Shown here in pieces: positions 391-15,549 of a DNA stretch of 15,549 nucleotides (its first letter is position 1; every line of letters starts with the position of its first letter). Location of the stretch: the NCBI GenBank assembly GCA_039587515.1, contig JBDHII010000077.1, forward strand, positions 1 to 15,549. Direction: 5' to 3'. The notes beneath the pieces were generated by a model, which saw only the letters and a program-made list of their open reading frames with translations, did not search any database and was not told where the DNA came from. This stretch comes from Gemmatimonadota bacterium. Its GTDB lineage: Bacteria > Gemmatimonadota > Gemmatimonadetes > Longimicrobiales > Gaopeijiaceae. Made by a program: the position numbers and the translations under genes.

Positions 391-1830
391 TCACGTCGTT
401 CCGAGCTTGGCGAAGTCCAGTTCGAGAGGATGAACGCCGCTGTGGGTCCAGTCGATGAACCAGACGTTGTCGCCCTCGTCACAGATGACGTTCGCGAGGT
501 TCAGGTCGCCGTGTTGGAGGCAGGTCTCCGACTGGACCGAGTCGGGATTGCGCGTGACGAGCCGTACGAGACTCTCGAGCTGATCGAGATCCACGGGCTC
601 GACGGGCCCGCCCAGCTCCTCCACGTATCCCAGAATGAGCTCCCCGTTTTCGCGGAGCCATCGGACCTGCTGCTCGGACTGCAGCCCGAGGCCGCGGAAG
701 GGGGCGACGGGAGCCCGGTCCAGGGTGTTCCCGTAGAGCTTTCCGCAGAGCAGGTCGAGCGACTTCTCCAACCGGCTCAGAAAATGTTGGACGGAGGCCT
801 CTCCCGCGGCCGTCTCGAAGTGGTCCTGCAGCGTCGTGGGACGACCCTCCATGGCCGCCAGCTCCATGCCGACCCCGAGCAGCTCTCCCTCCGTGACGGG
901 ATAGCCGAACGTCGGCACGTGCTTGCCGAAGAAGTCCTTCACCTGATGGTACCCGTCCAACTCCCTGCGCATCTGGGAGAACGCGTCGATCTTGATCACC
1001 ATCGGCTCGGTCCGCGCGTCTCCCATCCAACCGTCGGCCAGGAAGAGAAGGCTGCCGCTGAAGCCGCCGGCCAGGGCCCGAAGGTGCGTGCGGGTCCAGT
1101 GCATGCAGATCATCTGCACGATCCGCTGCGCCTCGTCCGGCAGCTGTGCCTGCGCTTCCGGAGGCCCGATCTCGCAGGGCCGGGCAGCCTCGAGACCGGC
1201 CGCCGCCGGATCGACGTCCACCCAGCGGGCGGCTTCCTCGAGATCCAGGAGGACGCGCACCCCGGAGCGGGGAAGCGTGTGCCGGAGCGCGGCGAAATGC
1301 GCTTCCGATGTGGCGCTACCCACGAGATGGGGGCAGATCGCGACCCTCTCGAAACCCAGAACGCTCCTCAGGAAGGTCGCGACCGCCTGGACGCGCTTCT
1401 CGGTGTGGCAGCCGACGACGAGAAACGTCAGGTCCGCCTCACCCTTTTCGATGCTCCGGACCTCGGCTCCACTGACCTCCGACACGACCCGGAGGAAATC
1501 GCGCCAAGGAATCAGCCCGGGTGAGCAAGAGATGCTCGGCACGCCCTCGGCGAGCTCCTCGAGGGGTTCGACCCACTCGCTGAGCGTGCCGGCCGATTCG
1601 GAGTGCGCACCGGCGGACTCCGCCTCCTCTCGCAGGAGGATCAACCGTGTGCTCGCACCCGACTCGGCAGACGCCCGGATCAGGCGAGGGAGGGGCCCGT
1701 CCCCGTACGCCCGACCTCGACCCATGAGGCGGGCGATCTCCCGTGCGCCCAGATTCGACGGGAGCCCGTTGAACTGCTTCTCCGGGCTCAGCGTGGAACG
1801 GACCAGGCTGTCGGCGACGACGATGTTCAT
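391..1830 (-). CDS. Two-domain protein: an unidentified ~220-aa N-terminal domain plus a C-terminal APH/ChoK-fold phosphotransferase (aminoglycoside phosphotransferase / homoserine-kinase-II-like).
   Basis: ATG start at 1830. The C-terminal motifs are GGFSGSLLFLADG...VIKI (nucleotide-binding region), the Brenner motif HGDLNLANV (HGDxxxxN) and FIDWTHSG (the metal-binding D), which are diagnostic of the APH/ChoK kinase fold. The N-terminal half (MNIVVADSLV...LTFLVVGCHTEKRVQAVATFL...) did not match a family by eye. The stop at 391 is 8 nt before the next minus-strand ATG. Confidence 0.7.
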   Translation of the reverse strand: MNIVVADSLVRSTLSPEKQFNGLPSNLGAREIARLMGRGRAYGDGPLPRLIRASAESGASTRLILLREEAESAGAHSESAGTLSEWVEPLEELAEGVPSISCSPGLIPWRDFLRVVSEVSGAEVRSIEKGEADLTFLVVGCHTEKRVQAVATFLRSVLGFERVAICPHLVGSATSEAHFAALRHTLPRSGVRVLLDLEEAARWVDVDPAAAGLEAARPCEIGPPEAQAQLPDEAQRIVQMICMHWTRTHLRALAGGFSGSLLFLADGWMGDARTEPMVIKIDAFSQMRRELDGYHQVKDFFGKHVPTFGYPVTEGELLGVGMELAAMEGRPTTLQDHFETAAGEASVQHFLSRLEKSLDLLCGKLYGNTLDRAPVAPFRGLGLQSEQQVRWLRENGELILGYVEELGGPVEPVDLDQLESLVRLVTRNPDSVQSETCLQHGDLNLANVICDEGDNVWFIDWTHSGVHPLELDFAKLGTT

Positions 1831-1840
1831 GCGTTATGAC

Positions 1841-3151
1841 CTAGAGGATGCAGCCGTCCGACACCAGGTCGGCCAGCTTTTCGGACTTGTCAGACGAGAT
1901 ACGGCGGAGGACCTCTTTGAACTCCGGGTAATCCGCGCGCAGCCGATTGAAGGCCGTGCTCGGCAGGAAGAAGATGTCACAGTGACTCAAAGCGTACACC
2001 GAGCCGGTCCGGCGCTCCCCCAGCAACAGTGACAGGTCGCCGAAGTAGTCTCCTGCCTCGAATTCCCCGAAAGACTTTGTGTCGCCCTCACCCCTGATCG
2101 CAAGCCGGCCGCTACCGACGAAGTAGAGTCCGGTGGCCACCTCCCCCTCCCGCACGACGTAACTGCCGGGGACGAACACCTGGGGCTCGAGGTGCATGAG
2201 GAGCGCGTTGCGAAGCGGCTCATCGGCATGGGTGAAGAGGGGAACACGCTCCGTCAGGTCCCGGGTGAGATGGTAGAGGACGTCGAGGCGGATCGGGTCG
2301 GGCAGGTCCTCGAGAAACCGCTGGGTGCTCACCCCCCGGTGCCGATCCCAGAGGTACTCGTAGTAGGCCTGGACCTGGGCCTGCAGCTCGAGGGGAACGC
2401 CTCTGTTCTGCAGGTAGCGGTTCACGCCCTCGACGCGGTCCCAGAAGGTGGACTTCGCCGCGTCGATCGCGCGGACGAGCGAGGCGATGCTTCCGATGAT
2501 CAGCGCGTACATCGAGGCACCGACGATCATGACGACCAGCGTGAAGAGATACTCGGCGTTGCGCGATGGAGTGATGTCTCCGAATCCCACGGTCGTGGTC
2601 GTCACGAACCCCCAATAGAGCGAGCGAAGGTACTGGCTGCCGACGTCCAGCGACTCGATGCCCGCGAGAACCACCCAGGAGTCCGCCGGGAATCCCTCCA
2701 CGACCGCGACGAGAAACCACCCGCAGGCGATCCAGTGGATCAGGACGAAGACGCCCACGACGAGCTTCGTGATTCTCAGATAGCCGGTGTTCGTGGAGCG
2801 CAGTCGCTCCCAGCCCCGAAAGGCTCGGAAGAGTCGGCCGATGCGAAGGAGGCGATTGGTCCTGAGCAGGAGCGCGAGCGGGATCCCGCCCAACGTGGCC
2901 GCGGAGCCGAGGAAGAGGAGATCGATCGGAACGGTGCCCGCAACGTCTGTCCAGAAGCCCGAGCGGCGGTATCGCCGAGCGATGGCTTTACGGTCGTGGA
3001 CCTCGGCTCCCCCGGCTCGGAACGGCGTGCGAAAGCCGAGCCGAATGTCGATCAGAAAGGCGAGGTCCAGCAGGTAGACGATCAGGCTCCCGACGAGGCC
3101 GACCTGCCGAAAGAAGGCGATCTGGGCGGGCACCACGACGACCGTGGCCAA
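1841..3151 (-). CDS. Cyclic-nucleotide-gated K+ channel (6TM, CNG/HCN-like; SthK/LliK/MloK1 type).
   Basis: There is an S4-like arginine ladder (LLLRTNRLLRIGRLFRAFRGWERLR) and a K+ selectivity filter (TTTVGFGD). A C-linker follows with eukaryote-like CNG/HCN spacing (YYEYLWDRHRGVSTQRFLEDLPDPIRLDVLYHLTRDL...VPLF...QVFVPGSYVVREGEVATGLYFVGSGRLAI). The CNBD phosphate-binding cassette is present (FGEFEAGDYFGDLSLLLGERRTGSVYA). The start is TTG at 3151 with no SD. The frame stays open upstream but contains no other start codon. Confidence 0.85.
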   Translation of the reverse strand: MATVVVVPAQIAFFRQVGLVGSLIVYLLDLAFLIDIRLGFRTPFRAGGAEVHDRKAIARRYRRSGFWTDVAGTVPIDLLFLGSAATLGGIPLALLLRTNRLLRIGRLFRAFRGWERLRSTNTGYLRITKLVVGVFVLIHWIACGWFLVAVVEGFPADSWVVLAGIESLDVGSQYLRSLYWGFVTTTTVGFGDITPSRNAEYLFTLVVMIVGASMYALIIGSIASLVRAIDAAKSTFWDRVEGVNRYLQNRGVPLELQAQVQAYYEYLWDRHRGVSTQRFLEDLPDPIRLDVLYHLTRDLTERVPLFTHADEPLRNALLMHLEPQVFVPGSYVVREGEVATGLYFVGSGRLAIRGEGDTKSFGEFEAGDYFGDLSLLLGERRTGSVYALSHCDIFFLPSTAFNRLRADYPEFKEVLRRISSDKSEKLADLVSDGCIL

Positions 3152-3252
3152 GACCGCACCGGCGATGAAGAGGTCCCACCCGGCGCGAGATCTCGACCCC
3201 TCGAGGATCGGGGGGTTGGGACGAATCGGTGCCTCTGGGGCGACCTGCCCGC

Positions 3253-3585
3253 TCAGAAGCCCTCCAGCGCCTCGGCCTCGGAGGGGAAGACGGCGAAGAT
3301 CGTGCTGAACCCGGAGATCTCGAAGACTTCGGCCACCGTCTCGTTGAGGCCGCAGAGTCTCAGGTTTCCGCCGGTTCCCCGGAGCTTCTTGGCCGTGGCC
3401 AGCAGCACGCGGAGACCGGCGCTCGAGATGTAGTCGAGGTCGGTGAAGTCCACCAACACCTTCGCGACCCCCTGTGCGGCGAGGTCGTCGAGGCGCTCCT
3501 GTGCCTCGGGCGCGGTGTTGGTATCCAGGTTCCCCTCGACTTGCACGACGGTGACGCCGTCGGCCTCACGAAGTGAGATGTTCAC
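3253..3585 (-). CDS. Anti-sigma-factor antagonist (single STAS domain, RsbV/SpoIIAA-like).
   Basis: 110 aa. The motif ...LVDFTDLDYISSAGLRVLL... carries the phosphorylatable Ser context seen in SpoIIAA/RsbV. The GTG start at 3585 is preceded by a GAGGAGGA SD. GTGA overlaps the stop of the upstream PP2C-kinase gene. Confidence 0.85.
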   Translation of the reverse strand: MNISLREADGVTVVQVEGNLDTNTAPEAQERLDDLAAQGVAKVLVDFTDLDYISSAGLRVLLATAKKLRGTGGNLRLCGLNETVAEVFEISGFSTIFAVFPSEAEALEGF

Positions 3586-5279
3586 GCATCCTCCTCATCG
3601 GTTTCGATGCCAGAAAGGTATTTCACCAGGACCACCACGTTCCGGTCCGTACGTCGGGTGTAGGACACCTCGTCCATCAAGCTCTCGACGAGGTGGATGC
3701 CGAGACCGCCGATGTCGCGCTCGTCGATCTCCAGAGCGGTGTCCGGGCTCGCCCGCCCGAAGGGGTTGAACGGCTGCCCGTCGTCGGTCAGACGAACGGC
3801 GAGCCGATCCGACGAGAGCTCGATGTGGACGTCGATCACGTGCTCTTCGTCGTCGGTGTACGCATAGGAAATGACGTTGTTGAGCAAGTCGTCGAAGACG
3901 AGCTTCAAGCTTCGGCGGACCTTCTCCGGGAGGCCGTGCTCGGCCGAGAACGCTTCGAAGGCCTCGTTGACCCGGTCGATCTCCTCCAGACGGTTCGCGG
4001 CCTCGACGTGAAGCACGTGAATGTCCGCCGCCCCCCCGGCCCGCCCGACGAAGCGGACAGCGAGAACCGTCACGTCGTCCGCCTGCTCGGCCTCGGCCTG
4101 GAAGCGCCAGACGTCCTCGGTGGACGCCGCCACCATGTCCTCCACGGTCTCGAACGGCTTCGAGTCCAGGATCTCGACCAGACGGTCCTCTTCGTAGAGC
4201 GTGCCGTCCGGATCCATCGCCTCGGTCACGCCGTCCGTGTACAGGAAGACGAAGTCGCCCGACTCCAACTGGCCCTTGGACTCTCCGTAGACCAGCCCGT
4301 CGACCGCGCCGATCACCGGCCCGTGCCGCTTGTCGAGCCGGATGCTCTGACCGTCCGACCGCTTCAGGTACGGCGGGTTGTGGCCCGCGTTGGTGTAGAG
4401 GAACTCGCCGGTGCTCACATCCAGGATTCCGAGCCATAGCGTGACGAACATCGCCGAGTCGTTGTTCTGGGAGATCTCGTCGTTGACATGGGTCAGAATG
4501 CTCGCCGGGGAAAAGTCGTTCGTCGCCCGGGATTTGATCAGCGTCTTGGTGACGGCCATGAAGAGCGCGGCCGGGACGCCCTTCCCCGAAACGTCGCCCA
4601 CGCAAAAGCAGAATCGGTCTTCGTCGATCAGGAAGAAGTCGTAGAAGTCCCCGCCCACCTCCCTCGCCGGCTCCAGCGTGGCGAACACGGTGAAGTCGTT
4701 GCGGTGCGGGAACGGAGGGAACTCGAGTGGGAGCATGCTCATCTGAATGTCCCGCCCGATGTTCAGCTCGCTCTCCATGCGCTCCTTGGCCGTCGTCGTT
4801 CGACGCAGGTTGTCGAAAGACTCCTGCAGCTCGCGGTTCTTGACCGTGAGCTCGCCCATCAGCGCGTCGCGACTCTTCTCTTCCACCATCGCGCGCAAGG
4901 CCGCGAGCCGACGCTCCGACAGCGCCGCCTGATTCAGGCTGGCGAGATGCAAGCCGAGCCTGAGAGCGGGCTCTCCGTCCACGCGCACACGGTGCACGTT
5001 GTCGAAGAAGGCTGCCGCGAACTCCCCGTCGACCTCACGGTCGACGCCCACGAAATCGAGGACGAGTTCCGGCATCACCGCGTCCGGGAGGACCCGCACG
5101 TCGATGCGTCCCGCGTCCGACATGCGCTCCACGACTCTGTAGAGCTGTGAGGTCACCGAGGCGATTCGGCTCGCCAGCATTCGGTCCCCTGTCAGCTCCT
5201 CCAACACACGCTGGACCTTCCGGCGTGCGTCGGAAACGGAGCCGATCCCGCCCCCCGTGATCGTTCCGACGTCGATCAT
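3582..5279 (-). CDS. Three-part signalling protein: an unknown N-terminal domain (~150 aa), a PP2C phosphatase (SpoIIE/RsbU type) and a C-terminal RsbW/SpoIIAB-like GHKL serine kinase (anti-sigma-factor type).
   Basis: ATG at 5279. A coiled-coil lead-in (ELNIGRDIQMSMLP) precedes the PP2C metal-site motifs GGDFYDF, GDVSGKGVPAALFMA, YTDGVTEA and DDVTVLAV. The C-terminal HATPase_c motifs are NNVISYAY (N box), DDGQPFNP (D/G box) and GGLGIHLV (G box). ATGA overlaps the upstream gene and GTGA overlaps the downstream STAS gene. Confidence 0.85.
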   Translation of the reverse strand: MIDVGTITGGGIGSVSDARRKVQRVLEELTGDRMLASRIASVTSQLYRVVERMSDAGRIDVRVLPDAVMPELVLDFVGVDREVDGEFAAAFFDNVHRVRVDGEPALRLGLHLASLNQAALSERRLAALRAMVEEKSRDALMGELTVKNRELQESFDNLRRTTTAKERMESELNIGRDIQMSMLPLEFPPFPHRNDFTVFATLEPAREVGGDFYDFFLIDEDRFCFCVGDVSGKGVPAALFMAVTKTLIKSRATNDFSPASILTHVNDEISQNNDSAMFVTLWLGILDVSTGEFLYTNAGHNPPYLKRSDGQSIRLDKRHGPVIGAVDGLVYGESKGQLESGDFVFLYTDGVTEAMDPDGTLYEEDRLVEILDSKPFETVEDMVAASTEDVWRFQAEAEQADDVTVLAVRFVGRAGGAADIHVLHVEAANRLEEIDRVNEAFEAFSAEHGLPEKVRRSLKLVFDDLLNNVISYAYTDDEEHVIDVHIELSSDRLAVRLTDDGQPFNPFGRASPDTALEIDERDIGGLGIHLVESLMDEVSYTRRTDRNVVVLVKYLSGIETDEEDA

Positions 5280-6376
5280 CGCGTCTTGAAACGACAGACG
5301 ACCACGGTCGCGTCGTCGTGTCTCTTTCCGTATCGGCCCACGATCTTCTCGGCTACGGTTTCGGCCGACTGGTAGCGCAGCTGAGGGTAGTCGTCGAACG
5401 TCGTGCGGTCCGAGATGCCGTCCGTGTGAATGATCAGCACGTCTCCCTCGGTGAGCCGGGCTGAATCGACACGGACATTCTTGACCTGAGAGCCCACGGT
5501 GCCTGCCGTGGCCGTGAGCCGCAGGGCTCGCTCTCCCTCGAGTCGAAGGACCGTGTTCCCGACCGCGGCATAGCGTGTCGTTCCCGAAGACAGCTCGATC
5601 CAGCAGAGAGAGACGGCGGCGCCTACGGTCTCCCGAAGTCGCTCGTTCAGCTTCTTCATCAGGTGACCGAGATCCGAGGTGGGCTCGCGCCGCACGTACC
5701 GTGTCGCGGCCTTTGCCGCCCCGTTGGCCTCCCTTCCGTGGCCCAGGCCGTCGACCACCACGATGAGCACGCCGTCTTCCACTTCGGTGACCGCGACGCC
5801 GTCTCCGCTCACGAGCTCTCCGCGACAGGGCCGGTTCACGTACGCCACCTCGAGCGGCCGGCTCTCTGCATCACCGGCCGGAAAGAGCAGGTTGCCTCGA
5901 TCCGTTCCGCGTTCCGAGAAGGCCTCGCTCCCGGTGACGGCGGCGGGCAGCGAGACCCGCCTCGGAGGAGAGACGGATTCGAGCCACTTCTGCACGACCA
6001 CCGTCGTCCCCTCACCGGTCTTGGATTCGATCGAGAAGTCGTCGACCATCCGCCTGACCCCCGGCAACCCGAGGCCGAGCGTCCCGCTCGAGCTGAAGTG
6101 ATCTCGCAGGGCCTCCTCGACGTTCTCGATACCCGGCCCCCGATCGGCGACCGTGATCTGCATGCCGCGACGGCTGCCCGATTGCACCTCTTCGATCGTG
6201 ACGCGACCGAACTCGGCGTACTTGAGAATGTTTGTCGCCAGCTCCGACACGACGGTTCCGATCGAGCGACTCTGCAGCTCGTTGAACTCCATCTCGCGCG
6301 CGAACTGCGTTGCCGAAACCACGGCGTGGGTCACGTCCGGATCGGTCCGGATTCTTCGCACGGTTCTACTCGGCAT
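5276..6376 (-). CDS. Fusion protein: an RsbT-like serine kinase (N-terminal) joined to an RsbX-like PP2C phosphatase (C-terminal).
   Basis: The N-terminal ~135 aa align by eye to B. subtilis RsbT: SELATNILKYA...TIEEVQSGSRRGMQITVADRGPGIEN...GLGLPGVRRMVDDFSIESKTGEGTTVVVQKWL. The C-terminal half aligns to RsbX: VSGDGVAV...VVVDGLGHGREAN...AAVGNTV...DVLIIHTDGIS...DDATVVVC. The start I chose is the ATG at 6376, which overlaps the end of the RsbS gene by 11 nt (gATGccgagTAG). The Arg-rich extension in the ORF track (start 6532) looks out-of-frame and is probably not translated. Confidence 0.8.
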   Translation of the reverse strand: MPSRTVRRIRTDPDVTHAVVSATQFAREMEFNELQSRSIGTVVSELATNILKYAEFGRVTIEEVQSGSRRGMQITVADRGPGIENVEEALRDHFSSSGTLGLGLPGVRRMVDDFSIESKTGEGTTVVVQKWLESVSPPRRVSLPAAVTGSEAFSERGTDRGNLLFPAGDAESRPLEVAYVNRPCRGELVSGDGVAVTEVEDGVLIVVVDGLGHGREANGAAKAATRYVRREPTSDLGHLMKKLNERLRETVGAAVSLCWIELSSGTTRYAAVGNTVLRLEGERALRLTATAGTVGSQVKNVRVDSARLTEGDVLIIHTDGISDRTTFDDYPQLRYQSAETVAEKIVGRYGKRHDDATVVVCRFKTR

Positions 6377-6839
6377 CGTCCTCGTCGACCGACGTCGCCT
6401 CAGTGGGCGCCCCCGCCTCGAGCTCGGTATCCGCTTCAAGGTCGGACTCCCCCTCGCCCGCGGGCTCCGTACGGCGCAGCTCCGCCATGCGTGCGAAGGC
6501 ATCGTCGAGCGTCGCGGTGGCCTCCACACCACGCGTATCCGCTCCCAGGTCGATCAGGGCCGAGACCACGCCGGGCTGGAGGCCGGATACGACGGTCACG
6601 GCGCCGAGGAGCCGTGCCATCCGCATGGTGTCGCGAAGCGCCTGAAACTCGACCGAGTCCATCACCGTCACGCCCGACAGATCCAGAATGACACCGCGAG
6701 CTCCCGAAGCGCGGACGAACTCGAGCAGCTCGTTGCGGAAGGCGCTGAGAATCCGGTCGTCCAGATCCACCTGGATCGACGCGACCACGCACTCCTGGGC
6801 CAGCTGGAGCGGGATCTTCGACGCTTCCTCCGTACTCAT
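6366..6839 (-). CDS. rsbS: RsbS-like STAS protein (stressosome core antagonist) with an acidic C-terminal tail.
   Basis: GVILDLSGVTVMDSVEFQAL...LLGAVTVVSGLQPGVVSALIDLG aligns with the B. subtilis RsbS segment VVIDLTSVDMIDSFIAKVL...GIQPAVAVTLIELG and conserves the phospho-Ser. ATG at 6839. The start lies 2 nt after the rsbR stop. Confidence 0.85.
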   Translation of the reverse strand: MSTEEASKIPLQLAQECVVASIQVDLDDRILSAFRNELLEFVRASGARGVILDLSGVTVMDSVEFQALRDTMRMARLLGAVTVVSGLQPGVVSALIDLGADTRGVEATATLDDAFARMAELRRTEPAGEGESDLEADTELEAGAPTEATSVDEDDAE

Positions 6840-6841
6840 CT

Positions 6842-7753
6842 TCAGCGCGCGCCGCTTCCCTTTCGTCCGATCGTCTGAACCGCGTCGGCCAGCGCGTCGC
6901 GCATCGTCGCCGTCGTCTTCACCTCACCCACGTCGATCCCGAGGTCGACGATCGTCTGGGCGATGGCCGGCGAGACTCCGGAGATCGTCGTCTCACAGCC
7001 CATGAGCTTGGTCGCCCGGGTGATCTTGATGAGGTGGTTCGCCACGGCCGTATCCACGACTCCAACCCCGCTGATGTCGAGAATGAAGACGCGGGCCTGC
7101 GACTCGGCGATCTTGCCGAGCGTGGCGTTCATGATGTCCCGAGACCGCTTCGAATCGATGATTCCGACGATCGGCAGGAACAGGAGGCTCTCCCAGATCT
7201 GCGTCACCGGCGTCGACATCTCCATGAGCGACCGGGACTGGGCGGTCAGCGTCTGCTCGACGAGGTGATTGTAGGTGTCGACGACGATGGCCGTGTCGAG
7301 ATGCAAGAGCTTGATGACGGCATCGAGCGTGGGAGCCCGATCAGCATCCGCGAAATCCCCCTCACGGATGACCATGCTGAACAGCTCCTGAAACATGTTC
7401 ATCCCGGCGAAGTACGTGTTCAGCGGCAGTCCGATGCGGGCATGCGCCTCTCCGACGAGCCGGCGCCGCTCGACGTATTCCGCATCGACCGTCCCCGCCA
7501 TGAAGGCCTCCCAGTAGCCCTGTTGCAGGGATTGGACGCGCTTCAGCGTCTCGGGATCCGCGAAGAACTCGTCGTAGTCGGGGAGCTTGGCGAGCCACTC
7601 GTACCACTTGTCCACAAGCTCGTCCATTCGGGCCAAGGCCTGCTCCCCGAAGATACGAATCCGCTCCAGGCCTTCATCGTCGAGGCGATACAGCTCCAGG
7701 AGCGCCCTGTGATCGACATGATGGTCGCCCGTCGTTGCGTAGTGACCGGCCAT
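6842..7753 (-). CDS. rsbR: RsbR-like stressosome sensor: an N-terminal globin-coupled sensor (protoglobin-type) domain plus a C-terminal STAS domain.
   Basis: The C-terminus VFILDISGVGVVDTAVANHLIKITRATKLMGCETTISGVSPAIAQTIVDLGIDV is near-colinear with B. subtilis RsbRA (GVPVVDTMVAHHI...GIRPEIAQTIVNLGIEL), including the Thr phospho-sites. The N-terminal domain shows globin-sensor features (YWEAF..., VGEAHARIGLPLNTYFAG with a candidate proximal His). The start is the ATG at 7753 behind an AGGAGG SD (AGGAGGCGAGCTTTCAATG). The ORF-track extension to 8011 is Arg/Trp-rich out-of-frame junk. Confidence 0.8.
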   Translation of the reverse strand: MAGHYATTGDHHVDHRALLELYRLDDEGLERIRIFGEQALARMDELVDKWYEWLAKLPDYDEFFADPETLKRVQSLQQGYWEAFMAGTVDAEYVERRRLVGEAHARIGLPLNTYFAGMNMFQELFSMVIREGDFADADRAPTLDAVIKLLHLDTAIVVDTYNHLVEQTLTAQSRSLMEMSTPVTQIWESLLFLPIVGIIDSKRSRDIMNATLGKIAESQARVFILDISGVGVVDTAVANHLIKITRATKLMGCETTISGVSPAIAQTIVDLGIDVGEVKTTATMRDALADAVQTIGRKGSGAR

Positions 7754-7805
7754 TGAAAGCTCGCCTCCTGTGATGAAAGCCCCCGCCTCTGGCGGCAGGG
7801 TATCC

Positions 7806-9704
7806 TCAATTCTCGTGTTCGACTGCGATCTCGATGGCATCGCGAAGCGTGCGCGCCGTGACGATGCCGTGAATGTCCACGTTGCTCTCCGCCATCCGTG
7901 CGGCCATCTCCGGCCGCACCCCGGATATGATCGCCCGGGCCCCCAACAAGCCGGCCGAGCGCGCGACCTTGAGAAGCCCCTGGGCGACATCGTCGTCCAG
8001 GTTGGGCACACCCGTCAGATCCAGGATCGCGAACCGCGCACCCTTCTCGTGCAGCTGACTCGTCAGCGACTGGCGAAGCTGCTCACAGCGGGCCGTGTCG
8101 AGCTCGCCCACGAGAGGGAGCACGACCACGTCGTCGTGAATCGGGATGAGCGGGGTCGAGAGCGCTTCGATCGAGCGGTTTTGCCGATCGATCAGCTCTC
8201 GAAGCGAGACGCGCATCGCCTCGAAGCTGCCAGCCAGCTCCCCGATCTCGTCACCCCGATCGACTTCGACCTGGGCTTCGAGGTCGCCGCTCGCCAGTTG
8301 ACTCGCCGTGACGGAGAGCGCTCGGATCGGGCGCGTCAGATTTCCTGCGAACCAGACTGCGAGCGCACCGAGGAGCGGAAGAAGGAGCGCGACCCACAGG
8401 AGCATGCGATTGCGCTGAGCGACGACCGGCGAGAGCGCCTCCGCGGCGTCGATCTCACTCATCAAAACCCAATCCAGGTCTGGAATGCTCAGGGGTCGGA
8501 AGCTCGAGAACACCTCGACGTCCCGGTAGTCCGGAAAGCGGGCCACGCCCGTCTCGCCGCCGAGCGCGAGCTCCGTACCGCGGGTCCGGACGGGCTGGAG
8601 GCCTACGGCGCTCCCCTGCGCCTCGATGGACCGAACCGTTGCCGGAGGCACACCCGCCTCACCGATCGCCGTGAGATACGCCTCGACGTCCTCCACCAGG
8701 AACCTCGACTCGGTCCTCAGCCGGTAGTCGGGGCCTACGAGGTAGGACTCGCCGGACTCACCGAGCCCGGTCGCCTGCCAAGCCGCCCCGCTCGTCATCA
8801 CGTCGTTGATGCGGTCCAACGGAAGCTGGAAAACCAGAACGCCCAGGAGCTCGCCGTCCTGCATCACGGGTGAGGCGATGAAAGAAGCTTGGGCACCGTA
8901 GGAAGGAGCGTACGGCTCGAAGTCTTCGAGCCGCGTGAAAGCGGCGCTTCCGGCGGCCAGCGCAGCGCGGTAGACCGAAGCGAGGTTGGATTCTCGGTAC
9001 GGACCCGCCTCGAGCGTCGTGCCGAAGTCGACCTCTTTGAAAACCGAGTAGACGATGCGGTGCGTCTGCGCATCGACCAGGAAGACGTCGTAGTAGCCGA
9101 AGCGTTCCAGGAAGCTCCGGAGCAGCGGGTGATAGCGCCCATGCACCGCGTCGTACCGCGTGCCCGCTTCGGCACGGTCCAGCAGGTGCTTGGAGCCCAC
9201 AGCGAAGGGGTTCGAGCTCACGTAGAGGTATTGGAGTAGACGCCCCAGTCCGTCCGATGGCCAATATTCCGAGAGCGGGCCGGCATCGTCCGAATTGGCC
9301 GAGAGCCTCGGAAGAAACTCGTCCTGGTAGTAGAGCCTCAGGCCGAGGTCGAGGTCACTCGCCGACGGCCCGGAGGCCAGAAGCTCGTTCTCCAGCGTTC
9401 GCGCCGCGGCAGTAAACTCGCGGAGCGCCTCCACGACCATGAGGTTCTCGGACTGGGTGACCACCTGGTCGCGGATCGTCTCGAAGTAGCCCTCGATCTG
9501 CCGGCCCTTGAGCTCCCGGACCGACGTCAGTAGATCGAGGGCCTGCTGCTCGGAGGTGGAGACGCCGAGGCGGTAGGCCACGGCAGCCATCGTCCCGACC
9601 GAGATGATCGTTACGATCGCCAGCACCGAGAGGACGCGCAGGCGGATCGAGAGATCCCTCAGACCCTGGCTCGATGCGCCGGCTCGCTCAGACTCTGGTG
9701 ACAC
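7806..9704 (-). CDS. Membrane-anchored sensor: TM1, a ~380-aa periplasmic Cache-like (double PAS-like) domain, TM2, a HAMP domain and a C-terminal RsbR/RsbS-type STAS domain.
   Basis: The hydrophobic segments are VLSVLAIVTIISVGTMAAVAY and MLLWVALLLPLLGALAVWFAG. HAMP is indicated by LTRPIRALSVTASQLASGDLEAQVEVDRGDEIGELAGSFEAMRVSL. The STAS motif is FAILDLTGVPNLDDDVAQGL...AIISGVRPEMAARMAES, which is stressosome-type but has Asp in place of the phosphorylatable Ser/Thr. The GTG start at 9704 overlaps the upstream small ORF by 17 nt. Confidence 0.75.
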   Translation of the reverse strand: MSPESERAGASSQGLRDLSIRLRVLSVLAIVTIISVGTMAAVAYRLGVSTSEQQALDLLTSVRELKGRQIEGYFETIRDQVVTQSENLMVVEALREFTAAARTLENELLASGPSASDLDLGLRLYYQDEFLPRLSANSDDAGPLSEYWPSDGLGRLLQYLYVSSNPFAVGSKHLLDRAEAGTRYDAVHGRYHPLLRSFLERFGYYDVFLVDAQTHRIVYSVFKEVDFGTTLEAGPYRESNLASVYRAALAAGSAAFTRLEDFEPYAPSYGAQASFIASPVMQDGELLGVLVFQLPLDRINDVMTSGAAWQATGLGESGESYLVGPDYRLRTESRFLVEDVEAYLTAIGEAGVPPATVRSIEAQGSAVGLQPVRTRGTELALGGETGVARFPDYRDVEVFSSFRPLSIPDLDWVLMSEIDAAEALSPVVAQRNRMLLWVALLLPLLGALAVWFAGNLTRPIRALSVTASQLASGDLEAQVEVDRGDEIGELAGSFEAMRVSLRELIDRQNRSIEALSTPLIPIHDDVVVLPLVGELDTARCEQLRQSLTSQLHEKGARFAILDLTGVPNLDDDVAQGLLKVARSAGLLGARAIISGVRPEMAARMAESNVDIHGIVTARTLRDAIEIAVEHEN

Positions 9705-10083
9705 GCACGCTTCCGGTTGGAAGGGTCACGTACCAGACCGACTCCGTGATGACGGATTCGACCGGATAGACGAGCCCTCCCTGGTCGAGCGCGTCCCCGA
9801 GCCGCATCGCTACGGAGATCCGGCCCTCCTCCACCCACTGGTTGTCCGCCTGGACCGTGAAAGCCAGTCCGGGACCGATCTGGGCCGCGAGAGAGGTGTG
9901 ACCCCCTTCATAGACATCCACCACCGCCTCGGACGGATCCGGATTGGCGCTGAGGACCCATGCGCCGGACGTCTCCTCGTGCGTCAGGAACTCCTCACGC
10001 GTCTCCCGATAGAGGACCGAGTCGGGACCGAGTCCGCCGAGCTCCAATGTCTCTCGCAACGCCTTCGCGGTCGCATCGTCCAT
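9688..10083 (-). CDS. Hypothetical protein (131 aa).
   Basis: ATG at 10083 with a GGAGGAGAAGTG-ATG SD. MDDATAKALRETLELGG...VRVTRV. GC3-rich. Its stop overlaps the GTG start of the Cache-HAMP-STAS gene (GTGTCACCAGAGTCTGA). I found no recognisable motif. Confidence 0.45.
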   Translation of the reverse strand: MDDATAKALRETLELGGLGPDSVLYRETREEFLTHEETSGAWVLSANPDPSEAVVDVYEGGHTSLAAQIGPGLAFTVQADNQWVEEGRISVAMRLGDALDQGGLVYPVESVITESVWYVTLPTGSVRVTRV

Positions 10084-10158
10084 CACTTCTCCTCCCACGC
10101 GAGTTTACCGGAGTCTGAGTCTGACCCCAGGGCGAAGTCTCCGCAATCACCCGATCGC

Positions 10159-11178
10159 TCAGAGCTCCTTGGGGATCTCGGCGGTCGACGTGGACTCGCC
10201 TCCGCGCGCCATGCGCTCGAAGTCGACGCCGGTAGCCGTCTTCATCTGCTCGATCATCGAAACGGCACTCCCCGTGAGGTTGCGAACGTAGTTCGGCAGC
10301 CCCTCGCCGCCCTGCTCCCCCCCTCCGTCGAGGATCGTGAGCTTGTCCACGCGCAGGTTGTCCGCTACCACGCGCGTGACCTTCTCGATCAGGTCCGGGA
10401 ACATGTGGATGAGGAAGAGCTCGTGGGTCTTGCCCTCGTCCCATTCCGCCCTCATCAGCTGGACGGCGTCGGCCGTGGCCTTCCCCTGCTCCCGGATGCG
10501 GGCCGCTTCTCCTTCAGCCCGAAGCCGCTCCGCCTCCGCCATGGCCGTCGCGGGGATCACCGTGTCGGCCTCATGCCTCCGCTTGCTCAACTCGGCCCGG
10601 ATGGACTCGAGCTCGACCTCGCGCTCGACGCGGGCGATCTGCCCGGCGACCTGGGCGCGCTCGCGTGCCTCGTTCTCGGACGCTTTGAGGTTGGCCCGCT
10701 CGACCTCCAGCGCGTTTTCCTTCTGGATGACCAGCTGCTCGGCGGCGATCTCCGCCTCCCGCCCGACGCGACGCTGCTCGGCCGACACCTCCCTCGCCTG
10801 AGCTTCCGCCTCCGCCTCCGCGATCTGAGCGTCGCGGTGCACCTCGGCATTACGCTTGCGTCCGATGGCCTGCAGGTAGCCCGCCTCGTCCGAGAGGTCG
10901 TGGATCTGGAAGAAGTCCAGCACGATGCCGAGGCCGGCGAGCTCCTCACGCGCACGCTCCGCCACTTCCTGGGCCAGCTCGAGCCGGCGCTCATTGGCCT
11001 CTTCCGGTCGGACGCCCGCGATCACGCCGCGCAACGCACCCTCCAGCACCTGCTGCGCCGTCTTGTCGATGGCCTCTACGCCCTTGCCGAGGAACCGCTC
11101 GATGCCCGCCTCGAGCCCCTGCTCCTCCCGACCGGCGAGCTTCACGTTCGCACGGCCCTCGATGTCGACCGGGATCAT
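10159..11178 (-). CDS. Flotillin-family protein, C-terminal portion (the end of the SPFH domain plus Ala/Glu-rich coiled-coil repeats).
   Basis: IERFLGK...EGALRGVIAGVRPEEANERR..LAQEVAERAREELAGLGIVLDFFQIHDLSDEAGYLQAIGRKRNAEVHRDAQIAEAEAEAQA... matches the flotillin (FloT/YqiK) SPFH end and EA-repeat region. It begins at an ATG that overlaps (ATGA) the stop of the 66-aa N-terminal fragment. It is probably one gene interrupted by a frameshift (see findings). Confidence 0.75.
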   Translation of the reverse strand: MIPVDIEGRANVKLAGREEQGLEAGIERFLGKGVEAIDKTAQQVLEGALRGVIAGVRPEEANERRLELAQEVAERAREELAGLGIVLDFFQIHDLSDEAGYLQAIGRKRNAEVHRDAQIAEAEAEAQAREVSAEQRRVGREAEIAAEQLVIQKENALEVERANLKASENEARERAQVAGQIARVEREVELESIRAELSKRRHEADTVIPATAMAEAERLRAEGEAARIREQGKATADAVQLMRAEWDEGKTHELFLIHMFPDLIEKVTRVVADNLRVDKLTILDGGGEQGGEGLPNYVRNLTGSAVSMIEQMKTATGVDFERMARGGESTSTAEIPKEL

Positions 11179-11375
11179 CCCCAGAAGCCCCGACCACCCC
11201 GGATCAGCCGATAGCCGACGGTCGTGCCGTCCTTGGCCTGACGCTTCCGGCCCGAAATGATCACGACCTCGTTGGGCTGGCAGATCACGATGTTGGCCTT
11301 GATGAAGATCACCAGGGCCAGAACGGCCAGCGCCCCCACACCAAGGTAGATCCCGATAAGCTGTGCTTGATCCAT
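11175..11375 (-). CDS. Flotillin N-terminal fragment (a TM anchor plus the start of the SPFH domain), 66 aa.
   Basis: ATG at 11375 with a GAAGGAA SD, 19 nt after the glnA stop. LIGIYLGVGALAVLALVIFI (TM) is followed by IVICQPNEVVIISGRK...GYRLIRGGRGFWG, the canonical flotillin N-terminus. It ends at a TGA embedded in ATGA. Confidence 0.6.
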   Translation of the reverse strand: MDQAQLIGIYLGVGALAVLALVIFIKANIVICQPNEVVIISGRKRQAKDGTTVGYRLIRGGRGFWG

Positions 11376-11394
11376 GATGGTTCCTTCGGCCGCG

Positions 11395-12831
11395 CTACGC
11401 GTTGAAGTACAGAGCGAACTCCCCGGGGTGAGGCCGGAGGCGCACGTAGTCGATCTCGTTCTTTCGCTTGTAGTCGATCCAGGTTTCGATCAGGTCTTCA
11501 GTGAAAACGCCGTCCCGGACCAGGAAGTCGTAATCCGCTTCGAGCGCCGAGATCGCCTCGTCCAGGGTCCCCGGAGTGCGCTCGATCTCCCTTCCTCCCG
11601 AGCCCGCCGCAAGCTCGTAGATGTCTTCGTCCACGGGGTCGGCAGGCTCCAGCCCACGCCGAATCCCGTCGATTCCGGCGCACATGATCGCCGCGAAGCT
11701 GAGATAGGGGTTGCACGACGGATCTGGCGTGCGGAACTCGATCCGCTTCGACTTCGGACCCCCGGTCATCGTCGGGATGCGGATGCACGCGCTCCGGTTC
11801 CGTCCCGAATAGAGCAGGTTCATCGGGGCCTCGTAGCCCGGTACGAGCCTCCGATAGGAGTTCGTCGTCGGACAGCAGATCCCACAGAGAGCTCGGGCGT
11901 GCTCCAGTAGCCCCCCGATGAAGTGGACCGCCAGCGGGCTCAGGTCACCGTAGGTGCCCGCCTGGTAGAACACGTTCTTCCCCTCTTTCGAGAGGCTGAT
12001 GTTGTGGTGCATGCCCGAGCCGTTTTCCTGAAGGAGAGGCTTGGGCATGAAAGTGGCCGTCTTCCCGTACCGGGCCACCACGTTCTTGACCACGTACTTG
12101 TACATGATCGAGGCGTCGGCCTGGCTCAGCAGCGGACCGAACCGGAAGCCGATCTCGCACTGGCCCGCAGCACCCACCTCGTGATGGTGCAGCTCCGGCT
12201 GTAGGCCGACCCGCTTGAGCACGTGGGAGATCTTGGAGCGGAGGTTGTTGTACTGATCGATCGGTGGCGCCGAGAAGTACGCGCCACGCTGCGCGGCTCG
12301 GTGTCCCAGATTCGCGCTGTCACCCTTCTCGCCCGTCGCCCAGGACGCCGCGGAGCTGTTCAGGAAGAAGTACCCGTGCTGGGTGGCCTGATCGAAGCGG
12401 ACCTCGTCGAACACGAAAAACTCGATCTCGGGGCCCAGGTAGGCCGTGTCGGCGATCCCGAGCGAGCGCACGAGCTGCTCGGCCCGACGTGCGACCGAAC
12501 GCGGATCGCGCGAGAAGGTGTAGCGCCCGTTCGGGTCGACGATGTCACAGAAGACCGACAGTGCCGGATCGTCGAAGAAGGGATCCTCGAAGACCGAAGA
12601 CGCGTCGGGAATCAGGAGCATGTCGCTCTGGTTGATCCTCGTGAAGCCGCGGACCGAGGAGCCGTCGAAGGCCATGCCGTTGCGGAACAGGGCCTCGTCC
12701 ACCAGCTCGGCCGGCAGCGTGAGGTGCTGAAGCGTTCCGAAGAGATCCACGAACTTCAGGTCCAGGAACTGGATCTCGCGCTCGCCGATCATGCGGACGA
12801 GGTCGCGCGGGCTGGTTGGATGCCTGGTCAT
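11395..12831 (-). CDS. glnA: Glutamine synthetase, type I.
   Basis: 478 aa. The GS-I signatures are present, including GSGMHHNISL, NPY..., and the N-terminal beta-grasp and catalytic-domain layout. ATG at 12831 behind a GAGGA SD that overlaps the glnK stop. Confidence 0.95.
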   Translation of the reverse strand: MTRHPTSPRDLVRMIGEREIQFLDLKFVDLFGTLQHLTLPAELVDEALFRNGMAFDGSSVRGFTRINQSDMLLIPDASSVFEDPFFDDPALSVFCDIVDPNGRYTFSRDPRSVARRAEQLVRSLGIADTAYLGPEIEFFVFDEVRFDQATQHGYFFLNSSAASWATGEKGDSANLGHRAAQRGAYFSAPPIDQYNNLRSKISHVLKRVGLQPELHHHEVGAAGQCEIGFRFGPLLSQADASIMYKYVVKNVVARYGKTATFMPKPLLQENGSGMHHNISLSKEGKNVFYQAGTYGDLSPLAVHFIGGLLEHARALCGICCPTTNSYRRLVPGYEAPMNLLYSGRNRSACIRIPTMTGGPKSKRIEFRTPDPSCNPYLSFAAIMCAGIDGIRRGLEPADPVDEDIYELAAGSGGREIERTPGTLDEAISALEADYDFLVRDGVFTEDLIETWIDYKRKNEIDYVRLRPHPGEFALYFNA

Positions 12832-12839
12832 CGAGGTCC

Positions 12840-13175
12840 TCAGTAGAGGGCCCGGGAGCCGCGCTCGCCGGTCCAGACAGTGACCACGTCCTGAAGCTCC
12901 AGAACGAAGATCTTACCCGAGCCACCGCTGTCCATGCAGCCCCTCGAGATCGCCTCTATCGCTCGCTCGAGGTTCGCGTCGTTGACGGCGACCTCGAGGC
13001 GAATCCGCTGAAAGAGAGAGACCTCCTTCTTCACGCCCCGGTACGTCTGCTGCTCGGTCCGAGAGGCAGTGCCCATGACGGAGGTTGCCGTCATGTGACG
13101 GACTTCGGTGTCGAACAGCGCCTGCTTGACGGAAGGAAGCTGCTCAGGCTTGATCAGCGCGACGATCATCTTCAT
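12840..13175 (-). CDS. glnK: Nitrogen regulatory protein PII (GlnK/NrgB-like).
   Basis: 111 aa. MKMIVALIKP..., a T-loop ending ...TYRGVKKEV (the B. subtilis NrgB-like YRGVKIE type), and GSGKIFV (B-loop, G[DS]GKIFV). ATG with a GGAGA SD, 18 nt after the amtB stop. Confidence 0.9.
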   Translation of the reverse strand: MKMIVALIKPEQLPSVKQALFDTEVRHMTATSVMGTASRTEQQTYRGVKKEVSLFQRIRLEVAVNDANLERAIEAISRGCMDSGGSGKIFVLELQDVVTVWTGERGSRALY

Positions 13176-13193
13176 GAGAAGGTCTCCACGCCT

Positions 13194-14504: not shown

Positions 14505-14631
14505 GTCGACCGATCGGTTGTTTTCAGGTTAGTGGGGACTCCCCCCGGGGGGGGGCAGACTAGCCCACGCGGCGTGCCACATCAAGTTCAGTCGGAGACC
14601 CCGAGCACGGGGAGTGCAATCCGACCCCGTC
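14505..14631 (-). promoter_or_regulatory. Intergenic region upstream of amtB-glnK-glnA. It presumably holds the promoter and nitrogen-regulatory sites, which I did not resolve.
   Basis: This is the only long (127-nt) non-coding gap on the amtB side. I see a weak sigma70-like candidate on the minus strand (TTGATG-N17-TAGTCT) and no convincing sigma54, NtcA or GlnR box. Confidence 0.3.
14541..14555. repeat. C6G9 homopolymer palindrome (CCCCCCGGGGGGGGG) in the amtB upstream region.
   Basis: Read directly from the sequence. It is self-complementary and is flanked by GGGGACT, which can pair with the C-run. A hairpin-capable element CCCCGAGCACGGGG lies nearby at 14599-14612. Confidence 0.6.
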
Positions 14632-15459: not shown

Positions 15460-15549
15460 GAATCCTCCCTTGATGTTTGGGCGTCGAGGATCATGGTCAG
15501 GGGCGATGCCAAGATCAAGGCGAGGCACGGCACGGGCGACTGGCCGGCA

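Follow-up and report, generated by a model that had tools for sequence, protein, structure and literature searches.

How does a signal leave a stressosome outside the Firmicutes, when there is neither an RsbU_N-bearing partner nor SigB to receive it? The question is raised by a 15,549-bp contig of a Gemmatimonadota bacterium (Longimicrobiales, Gaopeijiaceae; JBDHII010000077.1 of assembly GCA_039587515.1), the whole of which is the window analysed here, and by the block of Rsb genes that it carries at 3253-10098 on the minus strand. For the stressosomes of Vibrio, the downstream partner of RsbT is likewise given as unknown (PMC9237108, PMC4976288). A preliminary description had recognized in the block a full RsbR, RsbS, RsbT and RsbX set together with a PP2C/RsbW/RsbV partner switch, repackaged with two enzyme fusions and two unlike sensory inputs, and this was confirmed, all of its domain calls being reproduced by Pfam and NCBIfam. 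The best explanation of the locus as a whole, to which we would give a probability of about 0.5, is that a stressosome of the Vibrio type, with an added Cache co-sensor, signals to a terminal partner switch without any operon-encoded sigma factor. The structural answer that this offers is that the messenger function of RsbT may have been copied into a dead kinase fused to the output enzyme, which predicts a specific protein-protein contact; the physiological answer is that ion and nitrogen homeostasis may be the controlled process, a testable candidate output to which fusions with Amt receptors, and linkage to channel, transporter and amt genes, seem to point.

The structural answer turns on the 565-aa output enzyme (3582-5279), which comprises an N-terminal domain (residues 1-140; 4860-5279), a helical linker (4737-4871), a PP2C/SpoIIE phosphatase (4050-4625) and an RsbW-type kinase (3621-3995). 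Pfam finds SpoIIE at residues 219-410 (E = 9e-54) and HATPase_c_2 at residues 429-553 (8e-25) and nothing over residues 1-218, and the first 140 residues have no sequence match in Pfam, NCBIfam or the PDB. What is this domain, which the preliminary description, rightly seeing a fusion, had left as the unknown part of an (unknown)-PP2C-RsbW protein? An AlphaFold2 model made from 23 homologues has a pLDDT of 90.4 and a pTM of 0.86, and profile-profile comparison (HHalign) pairs it, with a probability of 94% (E = 1.2e-7, 75 columns), with the RsbT half of the adjacent fusion protein. The N box has Arg where RsbT has its Asn (SELarN), the G1 box has disappeared from the aligned stretch, and no G2 box can be seen in the consensus of the family. 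Profile and model together indicate that the domain, hereafter psiRsbT, is a lid-less pseudokinase derived from RsbT and devoid of ATP-binding boxes. Two other identities were considered: a four-helix bundle of the RsbU_N type, which was ruled out by the fold and by the lack of any Pfam match, and a copy of the enzyme's own RsbW domain, which was ruled out by an HHalign probability of 1%, as against 94% to RsbT.

A word-indexed search with psiRsbT alone gave a single match, so full-length homologues were used instead. Co-occurrence was counted over 94 loci (related loci carry the labels L001-L093, and nearly all are metagenome-assembled genomes (MAGs) or metagenome contigs). HMM search found psiRsbT in 22 of the 94. 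In 20 of these the next gene upstream encodes an RsbT-type kinase (hmmsearch), and in the remaining two the contig ends inside the upstream RsbT-RsbX gene; no RsbT domain was found by hmmsearch in any of the 72 loci without psiRsbT. The pseudokinase is thus strictly coupled to stressosome genes, and psiRsbT-PP2C-RsbW is the form of the enzyme found wherever a stressosome is present. A five-gene core, consisting of a globin- (or PAS-) RsbR, RsbS, RsbT-RsbX, psiRsbT-PP2C-RsbW and RsbV, is found again, its junctions equally tight, in Gemmatimonadota, in genomes of Halieaceae, in one Bacteroidetes MAG and one Deltaproteobacteria MAG, and in many metagenome contigs. Conservation of the neighbourhood in related genomes, which the preliminary description had proposed as a check, therefore holds for a core of five or six genes in several phyla, not every neighbour being universal.

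The rest of the output enzyme appears fully equipped for catalysis. Its phosphatase retains GGDFYD, GDVSGKG, TDGVTEA and DDVTV, and its RsbW domain, which matches both RsbW and SpoIIAB models, retains LLNNVISYA, DDGQPF and GGLGIH. Among solved structures, the closest two-domain relative of the PP2C-RsbW part is Rv1364c of Mycobacterium tuberculosis (3KE6; Foldseek E = 2e-20, phmmer 1e-14), followed by RssB and SiaA. In a model of the full-length enzyme (pLDDT 86.9, pTM 0.64) the least confident part is the pair of helices joining psiRsbT to the phosphatase (residues 137-181), and the linker region is homologous to that of RssB. Activation of PP2C phosphatases by dimerization of a helical linker is described for RsbU and has been proposed for phosphatases with other N-terminal domains, and a low-confidence, RssB-like helical linker fits this coiled-coil model (PMC12143880). 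The start of the gene for the antagonist RsbV (3253-3585) overlaps the stop of the 565-aa enzyme by 4 nt, and its product is a single-domain STAS protein (Pfam 1e-25; TIGR00377, ant_ant_sig, 97 bits) in which Ser55 aligns with the phospho-Ser of SpoIIAA. Thus one hallmark of a SigB-type pathway, an RsbV with its phospho-Ser together with an RsbW kinase, is present, and two others, an RsbU_N domain and a cognate sigma gene in the operon, were not found.

Upstream, at 5276-6376, a single gene encodes a GHKL Ser/Thr kinase (5987-6331) joined to a PP2C feedback phosphatase (5288-5776), recognized by Pfam as HATPase_c_2 (6e-13) and SpoIIE (1e-12). The RsbT half has intact N, G1 and G2 boxes (SELATN, DRGPGI, GLGLPG), and its gene overlaps rsbS by 11 nt, as expected of the RsbT of a stressosome. 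The phosphatase half has intact PP2C metal motifs (DGLGHG, TDGISD, HDDATV), its closest solved relatives being the Moorella stressosome phosphatase MtX (3ZT9, 2e-20) and B. subtilis RsbX (3W40, 1e-9); by these alignments it is specifically RsbX-like, the small feedback phosphatase that should follow rsbT, though here fused to RsbT. All four catalytic domains of the block (RsbT, RsbX, PP2C and RsbW) keep their motifs. The fusion is real, and common enough to form a widespread family: an exhaustive search of 1.84 billion representatives with RsbT-RsbX as query gave 539 matches at E<=1e-30, and among the best 150 of the 539 most are of 320-390 aa and cover both halves of the query. The idea that the fusions might be assembly artefacts was ruled out by the fused orthologues in many loci. 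RsbT and RsbX are separate genes, in different frames, in L008 and L014 and are fused in most other loci.

The sensory side of the block closely resembles that of Vibrio. RsbR (6842-7753; Protoglobin-STAS by Pfam) has a sensor globin (7268-7708; Protoglobin 7e-28, 98 bits) and a STAS domain (6899-7207; 4e-12), and aligns end to end with RsbR of the Vibrio vulnificus stressosome (7O0I_B, E = 4e-98). Tyr51 (distal) and His104 (proximal) align with the conserved haem residues of the Vibrio protein, so that by sequence the protein would qualify, with a proximal His at F8 and a distal Tyr at B10, as a haem-binding globin-coupled sensor. Their separation, 53 residues, equals that of Tyr70 and His123 in HemAT. 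Both phospho-Thr residues are kept, the first in 20/20 and the second in 19/20 aligned orthologues, and the protein has the layout of a stressosome RsbR, a variable N-terminal sensor followed by a C-terminal STAS domain with two phospho-Thr. The scaffold protein RsbS (6366-6839), with a single STAS domain by Pfam, has its best PDB matches (2e-18 to 2e-16) among the RsbS proteins of B. subtilis, Listeria and Vibrio, and its Ser62 aligns with the phospho-acceptor Ser, the residue mutated to Ala in 9O4R, as an RsbS should have. It ends in a strongly acidic, low-complexity tail of about 38 residues (about 120-157; 6366-6480) that is not present in the RsbS of solved stressosomes and which the start of the RsbT-RsbX gene overlaps. 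As far as sequence can test it, the stressosome module appears complete in every feature. Assembly into a pseudo-icosahedral STAS core of ~1.8 MDa that sequesters RsbT would be predicted from the homology of its proteins to subunits of solved complexes.

The second input is a membrane protein encoded at 7806-9704 (dCache-HAMP-STAS by Pfam), in which a periplasmic dCache_1 domain (8466-9104; 1e-12), bracketed by two hydrophobic segments taken as transmembrane (TM) helices, is followed by HAMP (8196-8354; 4e-17) and STAS (7875-8150; 5e-13), the STAS region scoring with the YtvA family model of NCBIfam. The position of the first phospho-Thr of RsbR is occupied by Asp, and in eight orthologues is never Ser or Thr (Glu, Asp, Lys, Leu or Pro); that of the second is Arg. 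Because Ser and Thr are lacking at these sites, we regard the protein, a membrane-anchored paralogue of RsbR, as a non-phosphorylatable co-sensor. It is found upstream of the globin RsbR in L001-L005, L008, L025 and L086, and elsewhere in the cluster in L014. The start of its gene is overlapped by 17 nt by an optional accessory gene, an open reading frame (ORF) of 136 aa (9688-10098; ORF list), whose sole Pfam match, to the type III effector family AvrPphF-ORF-2, is borderline, scoring 25 bits where the cutoff is also 25; this ORF is kept in L001 and L025 (62-64% identity) and absent from L003.

How does this compare with what is known? Like the RsbR-S-T-X systems of V. vulnificus and V. brasiliensis (7O0I; PMC9237108, PMC4976288), the window has an RsbR with a haem sensor globin, followed in the same order by RsbS, RsbT and RsbX, and like that 'minimal' stressosome its locus is without sigB, an rsbU-type N-domain or any sigma gene. 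In Vibrio, however, RsbT and RsbX are separate, there is no RsbR paralogue and no RsbV or RsbW, and a two-component pair encoded downstream, D1/D2, is presumed to be the output, whereas the window has a single RsbT-RsbX protein, an additional dCache-HAMP-STAS protein in the membrane, and psiRsbT-PP2C-RsbW with RsbV as its output. With the SigB pathway of B. subtilis and Listeria the window shares STAS co-antagonists, RsbT, RsbX, a linker-bearing RsbU-like PP2C, RsbV and RsbW, with the phospho-acceptors kept; it differs in having no sigB, in the exchange of the four-helix N-domain of RsbU for an RsbT-like pseudokinase, in carrying RsbU and RsbW, and again RsbT and RsbX, as single polypeptides, and in a haem instead of a non-haem globin. 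The MtR/MtS/MtT/MtX system of Moorella thermoacetica (3ZT9), as it is represented in PMC4976288 and PMC12143880, is also sigma-less and has a non-sigma output, a diguanylate cyclase, and no PDB entry matches the RsbX half better than its MtX; in those accounts the output protein carries RsbU_N and GGDEF and is acted on by RsbT, whereas the window has neither of these domains.

The preliminary description, in calling the arrangement something other than a textbook architecture, had gone too far: sigma-less rsbRSTX sets with a haem-globin RsbR (PMC9237108, PMC4976288), PP2C-kinase fusions such as Rv1364c (3KE6; PMC6482189) and the non-sigma output of Moorella were already known, and RsbT-RsbX is a large family. 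In the literature searched we found no description of an RsbT-derived pseudokinase receiver, of a single stressosome served by two proteins that each combine kinase and phosphatase, or of a recurrent link between such a terminal cassette and Amt receptors or cNMP-binding transporters.

From these elements the following scheme may be proposed. The globin RsbR would report ligands of the O2 type, as in V. brasiliensis (PMC4976288), and RsbT would phosphorylate RsbS and RsbR, both of which RsbX would reset. A duplication of RsbT may have divided two roles, the catalytic copy, tethered to RsbX, writing and erasing phosphates on the STAS core, and the dead copy standing in for the N-domain of RsbU, as a receiver through which the stressosome is coupled to the output enzyme. 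In what way might psiRsbT be engaged? We see about an even chance that it binds released RsbT-RsbX, which would keep the canonical logic; that it instead docks, in the manner of RsbT, on the STAS domains of RsbS and RsbR is a tentative alternative with odds nearer one in three. In both cases the effect would be relayed by the helical linker, turning on the PP2C dimer, and the balance between the phosphatase and the fused RsbW would set the ratio of RsbV to RsbV-P. In the last and most speculative step, RsbV, or the RsbW domain titrated by it, would act on membrane ion transport and nitrogen physiology, and not on a sigma factor of its own.

Could the cascade nevertheless end at a sigma factor? 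Pfam and NCBIfam find none among the 14 genes of the contig, and none was found in the flanks of relatives (about 10 kb downstream in L025, about 10 kb on each side in L081-L086 and about 8 kb in L090-L093). The contig provides no flanks of its own, so such tests were run on relatives. The claim that no sigma gene lies in or beside the block is thus upheld on the contig and in these flanks; a sigB gene immediately outside the window, which the preliminary description had named as the finding that would speak against it, did not appear in the relatives, the contig itself ending at the window. This does not decide whether the output is transcriptional, because the closest characterized systems with a fused PP2C-kinase and STAS act on an unlinked sigma factor, RpoS. 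One of them is CrsR-CrsA of Shewanella, a fused phosphatase/kinase and STAS module of the HsbR kind, and CrsR likewise acts on the unlinked sigma factor RpoS. Rv1364c of M. tuberculosis, which resembles the window enzyme in having PP2C and RsbW in one chain and differs from it in having a PAS input and no stressosome, includes a STAS domain in the same polypeptide and has a link to SigF. HsbR-HsbA of Pseudomonas, which regulates RpoS (PMC6482189), and SypE-SypA of Vibrio fischeri (PMC5085249, PMC10120452) are also like the window in combining PP2C and an RsbW-type kinase in one protein, with an adjacent STAS protein and no sigma factor in the operon.

It is therefore a serious, if somewhat unlikely, alternative that the switch is conventionally transcriptional, with RsbW as anti-sigma factor for a sigma factor encoded elsewhere, RsbV as its antagonist, and transport neighbours that are unrelated or simply co-expressed. 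PP2C followed by HATPase_c_2 in one protein beside a STAS gene, as found here, is the architecture of HsbR-HsbA (PMC6482189) and Rv1364c; the RsbW domain has every kinase motif and matches RsbW and SpoIIAB models; one locus, L086, has the core without a transporter neighbour; and the sister protein of L016 has the exact REC-PP2C-kinase layout of HsbR. In the window enzyme itself there is no Response_reg match, and whereas HsbR, CrsR and SypE take their input through a REC domain fed by a phosphorelay, here it would come through a pseudokinase tied to the stressosome. Besides the absence of a sigma gene from the contig and the examined flanks, an unlinked sigma factor leaves unexplained the linkage to channel, transporter and Amt genes, which recurs in rearranged form, and the Amt fusions described below, though these could be inputs. 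If the output is indeed an unlinked sigma factor, what is left of the finding is a known pathway with its domains newly arranged.

What, then, is the evidence for an output in ion transport or nitrogen metabolism? It begins with swappable inputs. Neighbour-joining analysis of the PP2C-RsbW core places the window protein in a clade rich in transporter neighbours (a cyclic-nucleotide-binding channel, a Na/Pi cotransporter, Amt), which are nearly absent from more distant PP2C-RsbW and STAS loci; several members of the clade show only RsbV. Three proteins of about 1,016-1,141 aa, from one Kiloniellales MAG and two Acidimicrobiia MAGs, are Amt-PAS(-GAF)-PP2C-RsbW fusions (L011 7103-10153, L019 5318-8371, L010 70-3495; Amt-PAS by Pfam). 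All of them include a full ammonium transporter domain, and RsbV comes next in every case, with the channel gene after it in L011 and L019. L016, from a Pseudomonadales MAG, has REC-PP2C-RsbW fed by a dCache-HAMP hybrid kinase, and L026, from a Gemmatimonadota MAG, has SBP_bac_3-PAS-PP2C-RsbW in the same context of amt-glnK-glnA-flotillin, channel and kinase genes as the stressosome-linked versions. The N1/N2 signature of ammonium receptors is QX6EX15NX2D[F/T]X54-60TX2[S/T] (PMC11152129). The fused Amt of L011 and L019 and the Amt encoded beside the switch in L016 carry it whole; L010 is truncated at the edge of its contig; and the separate Amt of the window departs from the signature only in the last element (Q44...E51...N67xxDF is present, with TIVA in place of Txx[S/T]). 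The sister proteins thus resemble Ks-Amt5 (Amt-histidine kinase) and Sd-Amt1 (Amt-HAMP-GGDEF; PMC5764959, PMC11152129) in joining an Amt with the receptor signature to a cytoplasmic transducer, which is here PAS-PP2C-RsbW; we found no description of a receptor fusion of Amt with a phosphatase/kinase in the literature searched.

Synteny points the same way. Next to RsbV in the window is the gene for a six-TM, cyclic-nucleotide-binding K+ channel with a TVGFGD filter (1841-3151; Pfam Ion_trans 1e-24, cNMP_binding 2e-17), a candidate output or co-effector. The channel gene also directly follows RsbV in L001, L011, L016, L018 and L019, and is nearby in L004, L008, L014 and L026. A Na/Pi cotransporter follows RsbV in all loci of the Halieaceae type and follows the channel in L016; a gene for a kinase-NUDT9 protein follows RsbV in L003 and L025, and Amt in L004 and L005. 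In L003, L004, L005, L008, L014, L025 and L026 the genes for Amt, PII, GlnA and flotillin are syntenic with the Rsb genes. In a reciprocal test that began from the channel and covered four homologue neighbourhoods (a metagenome scan with the channel having given only three loci), three of the four sampled homologues (48-50% identity) lay beside an Rsb cluster, as part of a trio of channel, kinase-NUDT9 and inositol-phosphatase-family genes convergent with RsbT-RsbX, psiRsbT-PP2C-RsbW and RsbV. The linked genes are co-directional in the window, convergent in L090, L092 and L093, and divergent in L004 and L026; the linkage thus survives rearrangement and replacement of the input, and is not universal. 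It is because of this conserved synteny (cyclic-nucleotide-binding channel, kinase-NUDT9, Na/Pi cotransporter, amt-glnK-glnA), together with the Amt-fused sister proteins, that a role of the output linked to ion transport or nitrogen is plausible, if unproven.

The partner-switch reading, in which stressosome and Cache co-sensor feed a terminal switch, has several points to contend with, which we gather here. The partner of psiRsbT and the target of RsbV and RsbW are ones that we infer from homology, phyletic pattern and synteny alone. The regulation of RpoS by HsbR-HsbA provides a precedent for a sigma target. L086 is a bare six-gene core, with no channel, Amt or transporter; the fourth channel homologue, from Poribacteria, has no Rsb genes beside it; and Halieaceae have the Na/Pi cotransporter in the place of the channel. 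The kinase-NUDT9 and flotillin genes are disrupted in the window, and if these lesions (described below) are real their products cannot be essential outputs here. The tree of the PP2C-RsbW core has no support values, and as most relatives are MAGs, their taxonomic labels, and with them part of the argument from independent lineages, are soft.

A bolder version dispenses with any contact with RNA polymerase: the enzyme would be caught and released on the stressosome via psiRsbT, and phosphorylation of the terminal STAS protein would directly gate or regulate ion transport, the targets being the cNMP-binding K+ channel in this lineage and the Na/Pi cotransporter in Halieaceae. We consider direct gating of this kind unlikely, at perhaps one chance in five. 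Were it true, sensing of O2 and of a periplasmic ligand would be coupled to ammonium and potassium homeostasis, ion channels would be under a post-translational partner switch, and the Amt-driven switches of the sister lineages would constitute a new class of ammonium receptor.

Less probable again is that the core and the transport and nitrogen genes are independent modules, brought together by shared ancestry or island transfer, with the switch acting on some other unlinked target, such as a diguanylate cyclase or a biosynthetic enzyme, in the manner of HsbA-HsbD or SypA. Many of the loci do come from the same few lineages (Gemmatimonadota, Halieaceae), and the gene after RsbV varies (cyclic-nucleotide-binding channel, Na/Pi cotransporter, kinase-NUDT9, Amt, a 270-aa protein, or nothing); STAS proteins with non-sigma targets are, moreover, documented (PMC5085249, PMC8256260). 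Such independence sits poorly, however, with a linkage that persists despite rearrangement and replacement of input domains, and with the fact that in two phyla the nearest homologues of the PP2C-RsbW protein carry Amt in the same polypeptide. The kinase's TCAD9 match in Pfam ('ternary complex associated'), and weak PADLOC matches of the channel's cNMP-binding domain to Pycsar-type effectors, might suggest a role in biological conflict or defence. This was rejected as extremely improbable: PADLOC gave only these generic cNMP-domain matches, with nothing for flotillin, kinase-NUDT9, the 136-aa ORF or any Rsb protein; the surrounding genes are those of housekeeping nitrogen assimilation; and GC is uniform across the contig.

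Turning to the contig itself, GC content is even along its length (63-68%), and its closest relatives are Gemmatimonadota MAGs with protein identities of 73-76%. All 14 genes are on the minus strand (ORF list), so that the block is co-directional, as had been stated. The preliminary description had, however, counted nine genes within 3253-10083, where there are seven ORFs, the 136-aa ORF included; nine is reached only if the channel and kinase genes are added. It had also given the junctions as mostly overlaps of 2-17 nt: overlaps of 17, 11, 4 and 4 nt are indeed present, but the globin and RsbS genes are separated by a gap of 2 nt and the Cache and globin genes by one of about 52 nt, taking ATG 7753 as the start of the latter. 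The Rsb block (3253-10098) is translationally coupled. Operon boundaries were drawn from gene spacing only; a promoter scan of the window gave 0 promoters, a terminator scan gave four terminator-like sites, fewer than the shuffle expectation, and an Rfam scan of the window gave no family.

Upstream of the block lie genes for Amt (13194-14504), PII/GlnK (12840-13175), GlnA (11395-12831) and a flotillin remnant (10159-11178), all recognized by Pfam and NCBIfam and forming a part of the conserved neighbourhood that the earlier account had overlooked. Relative to L003 and L025, the flotillin gene (10159-11390) has an 82-nt deletion near 11184, and its first 66 or so codons are in another frame than the 339-aa remnant ORF. 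At the other end, the kinase ORF (391-1830; TCAD9 1.5e-16, APH, by Pfam), previously taken for a small-molecule-type kinase, is a kinase, but it is only a frameshifted fragment of a kinase-NUDT9 protein of about 860 aa: the reading frame runs on to base 1, where it is cut by the contig end, orthologues have 857-862 aa with C-terminal NUDT9_N and NUDIX domains, and DNA alignment shows a 1-nt deletion at 401/402 (AAGCTCG-GAACG, compared with AAGCTCGAGAACG in L001 and L025). The contig thus carries two disrupted accessory genes with an intact Rsb core, and the lesions reflect either mistakes in the assembly or the decay of neighbours that are not essential. Relatives of the NUDT9 region include human NUDT9 and the NUDT9H domain of TRPM2 channels, a curious parallel in which an ADP-ribose-type hydrolase is again found beside a ligand-gated channel.

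Some further observations concern possible ligands and neighbours. Upstream of amt, at 14632-15528, Pfam and NCBIfam recognize a gene that combines an SCO4226-like (nickel-responsive) domain with a class III adenylate/guanylate cyclase, and which was not seen in related loci; this cyclase might supply the ligand of the cNMP-binding channel, whose gene lies towards the opposite contig end. A Pfam-less protein of about 270 aa, which is not encoded in the window, adjoins RsbV in five loci (L010 3935-4738, L013 11699-12580, L021 6689-7504, L024 3330-4154 and, on the minus strand, L086 12060-12875). It shows 66% identity between a Xanthomonadales MAG and L086, and by eye has motifs resembling those of class III nucleotidyl cyclases (FMSVDLAGST, KVIGDEIIF, GPDVDTGFRLA); comparison with the N-terminus of the kinase-NUDT9 protein revealed no similarity.

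Several related loci have additional components. The Bacteroidetes-labelled MAG locus L008 has, at 9285-11427 on the minus strand, opposite to its stressosome cluster, a string of a stand-alone RsbW, RsbV and the cyclic-nucleotide-binding channel, a compact arrangement which hints that the channel forms a unit with the kinase/antagonist pair. In L016 (Pseudomonadales) a SulP-STAS-cNMP_binding transporter is encoded upstream (1097-3307) and the Na/Pi cotransporter (13014-14702) comes after the channel, so that three cNMP- or STAS-related transport proteins surround one partner switch. Nitrogen genes are also found beside sister PP2C-RsbW/RsbV pairs, namely GlnE adenylyltransferase (L009 6670-9663) and a protein with a Glu_synthase domain (L012 11875-13485, minus strand), which reinforces the nitrogen link. 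Finally, in L092 (12909-14462) and L093 (12903-14486), on the minus strand in both, a gene for a GAF-SpoIIE phosphatase comes directly after RsbV; it would provide a second, stressosome-independent input on the same STAS protein, recalling the RsbP energy branch of B. subtilis.

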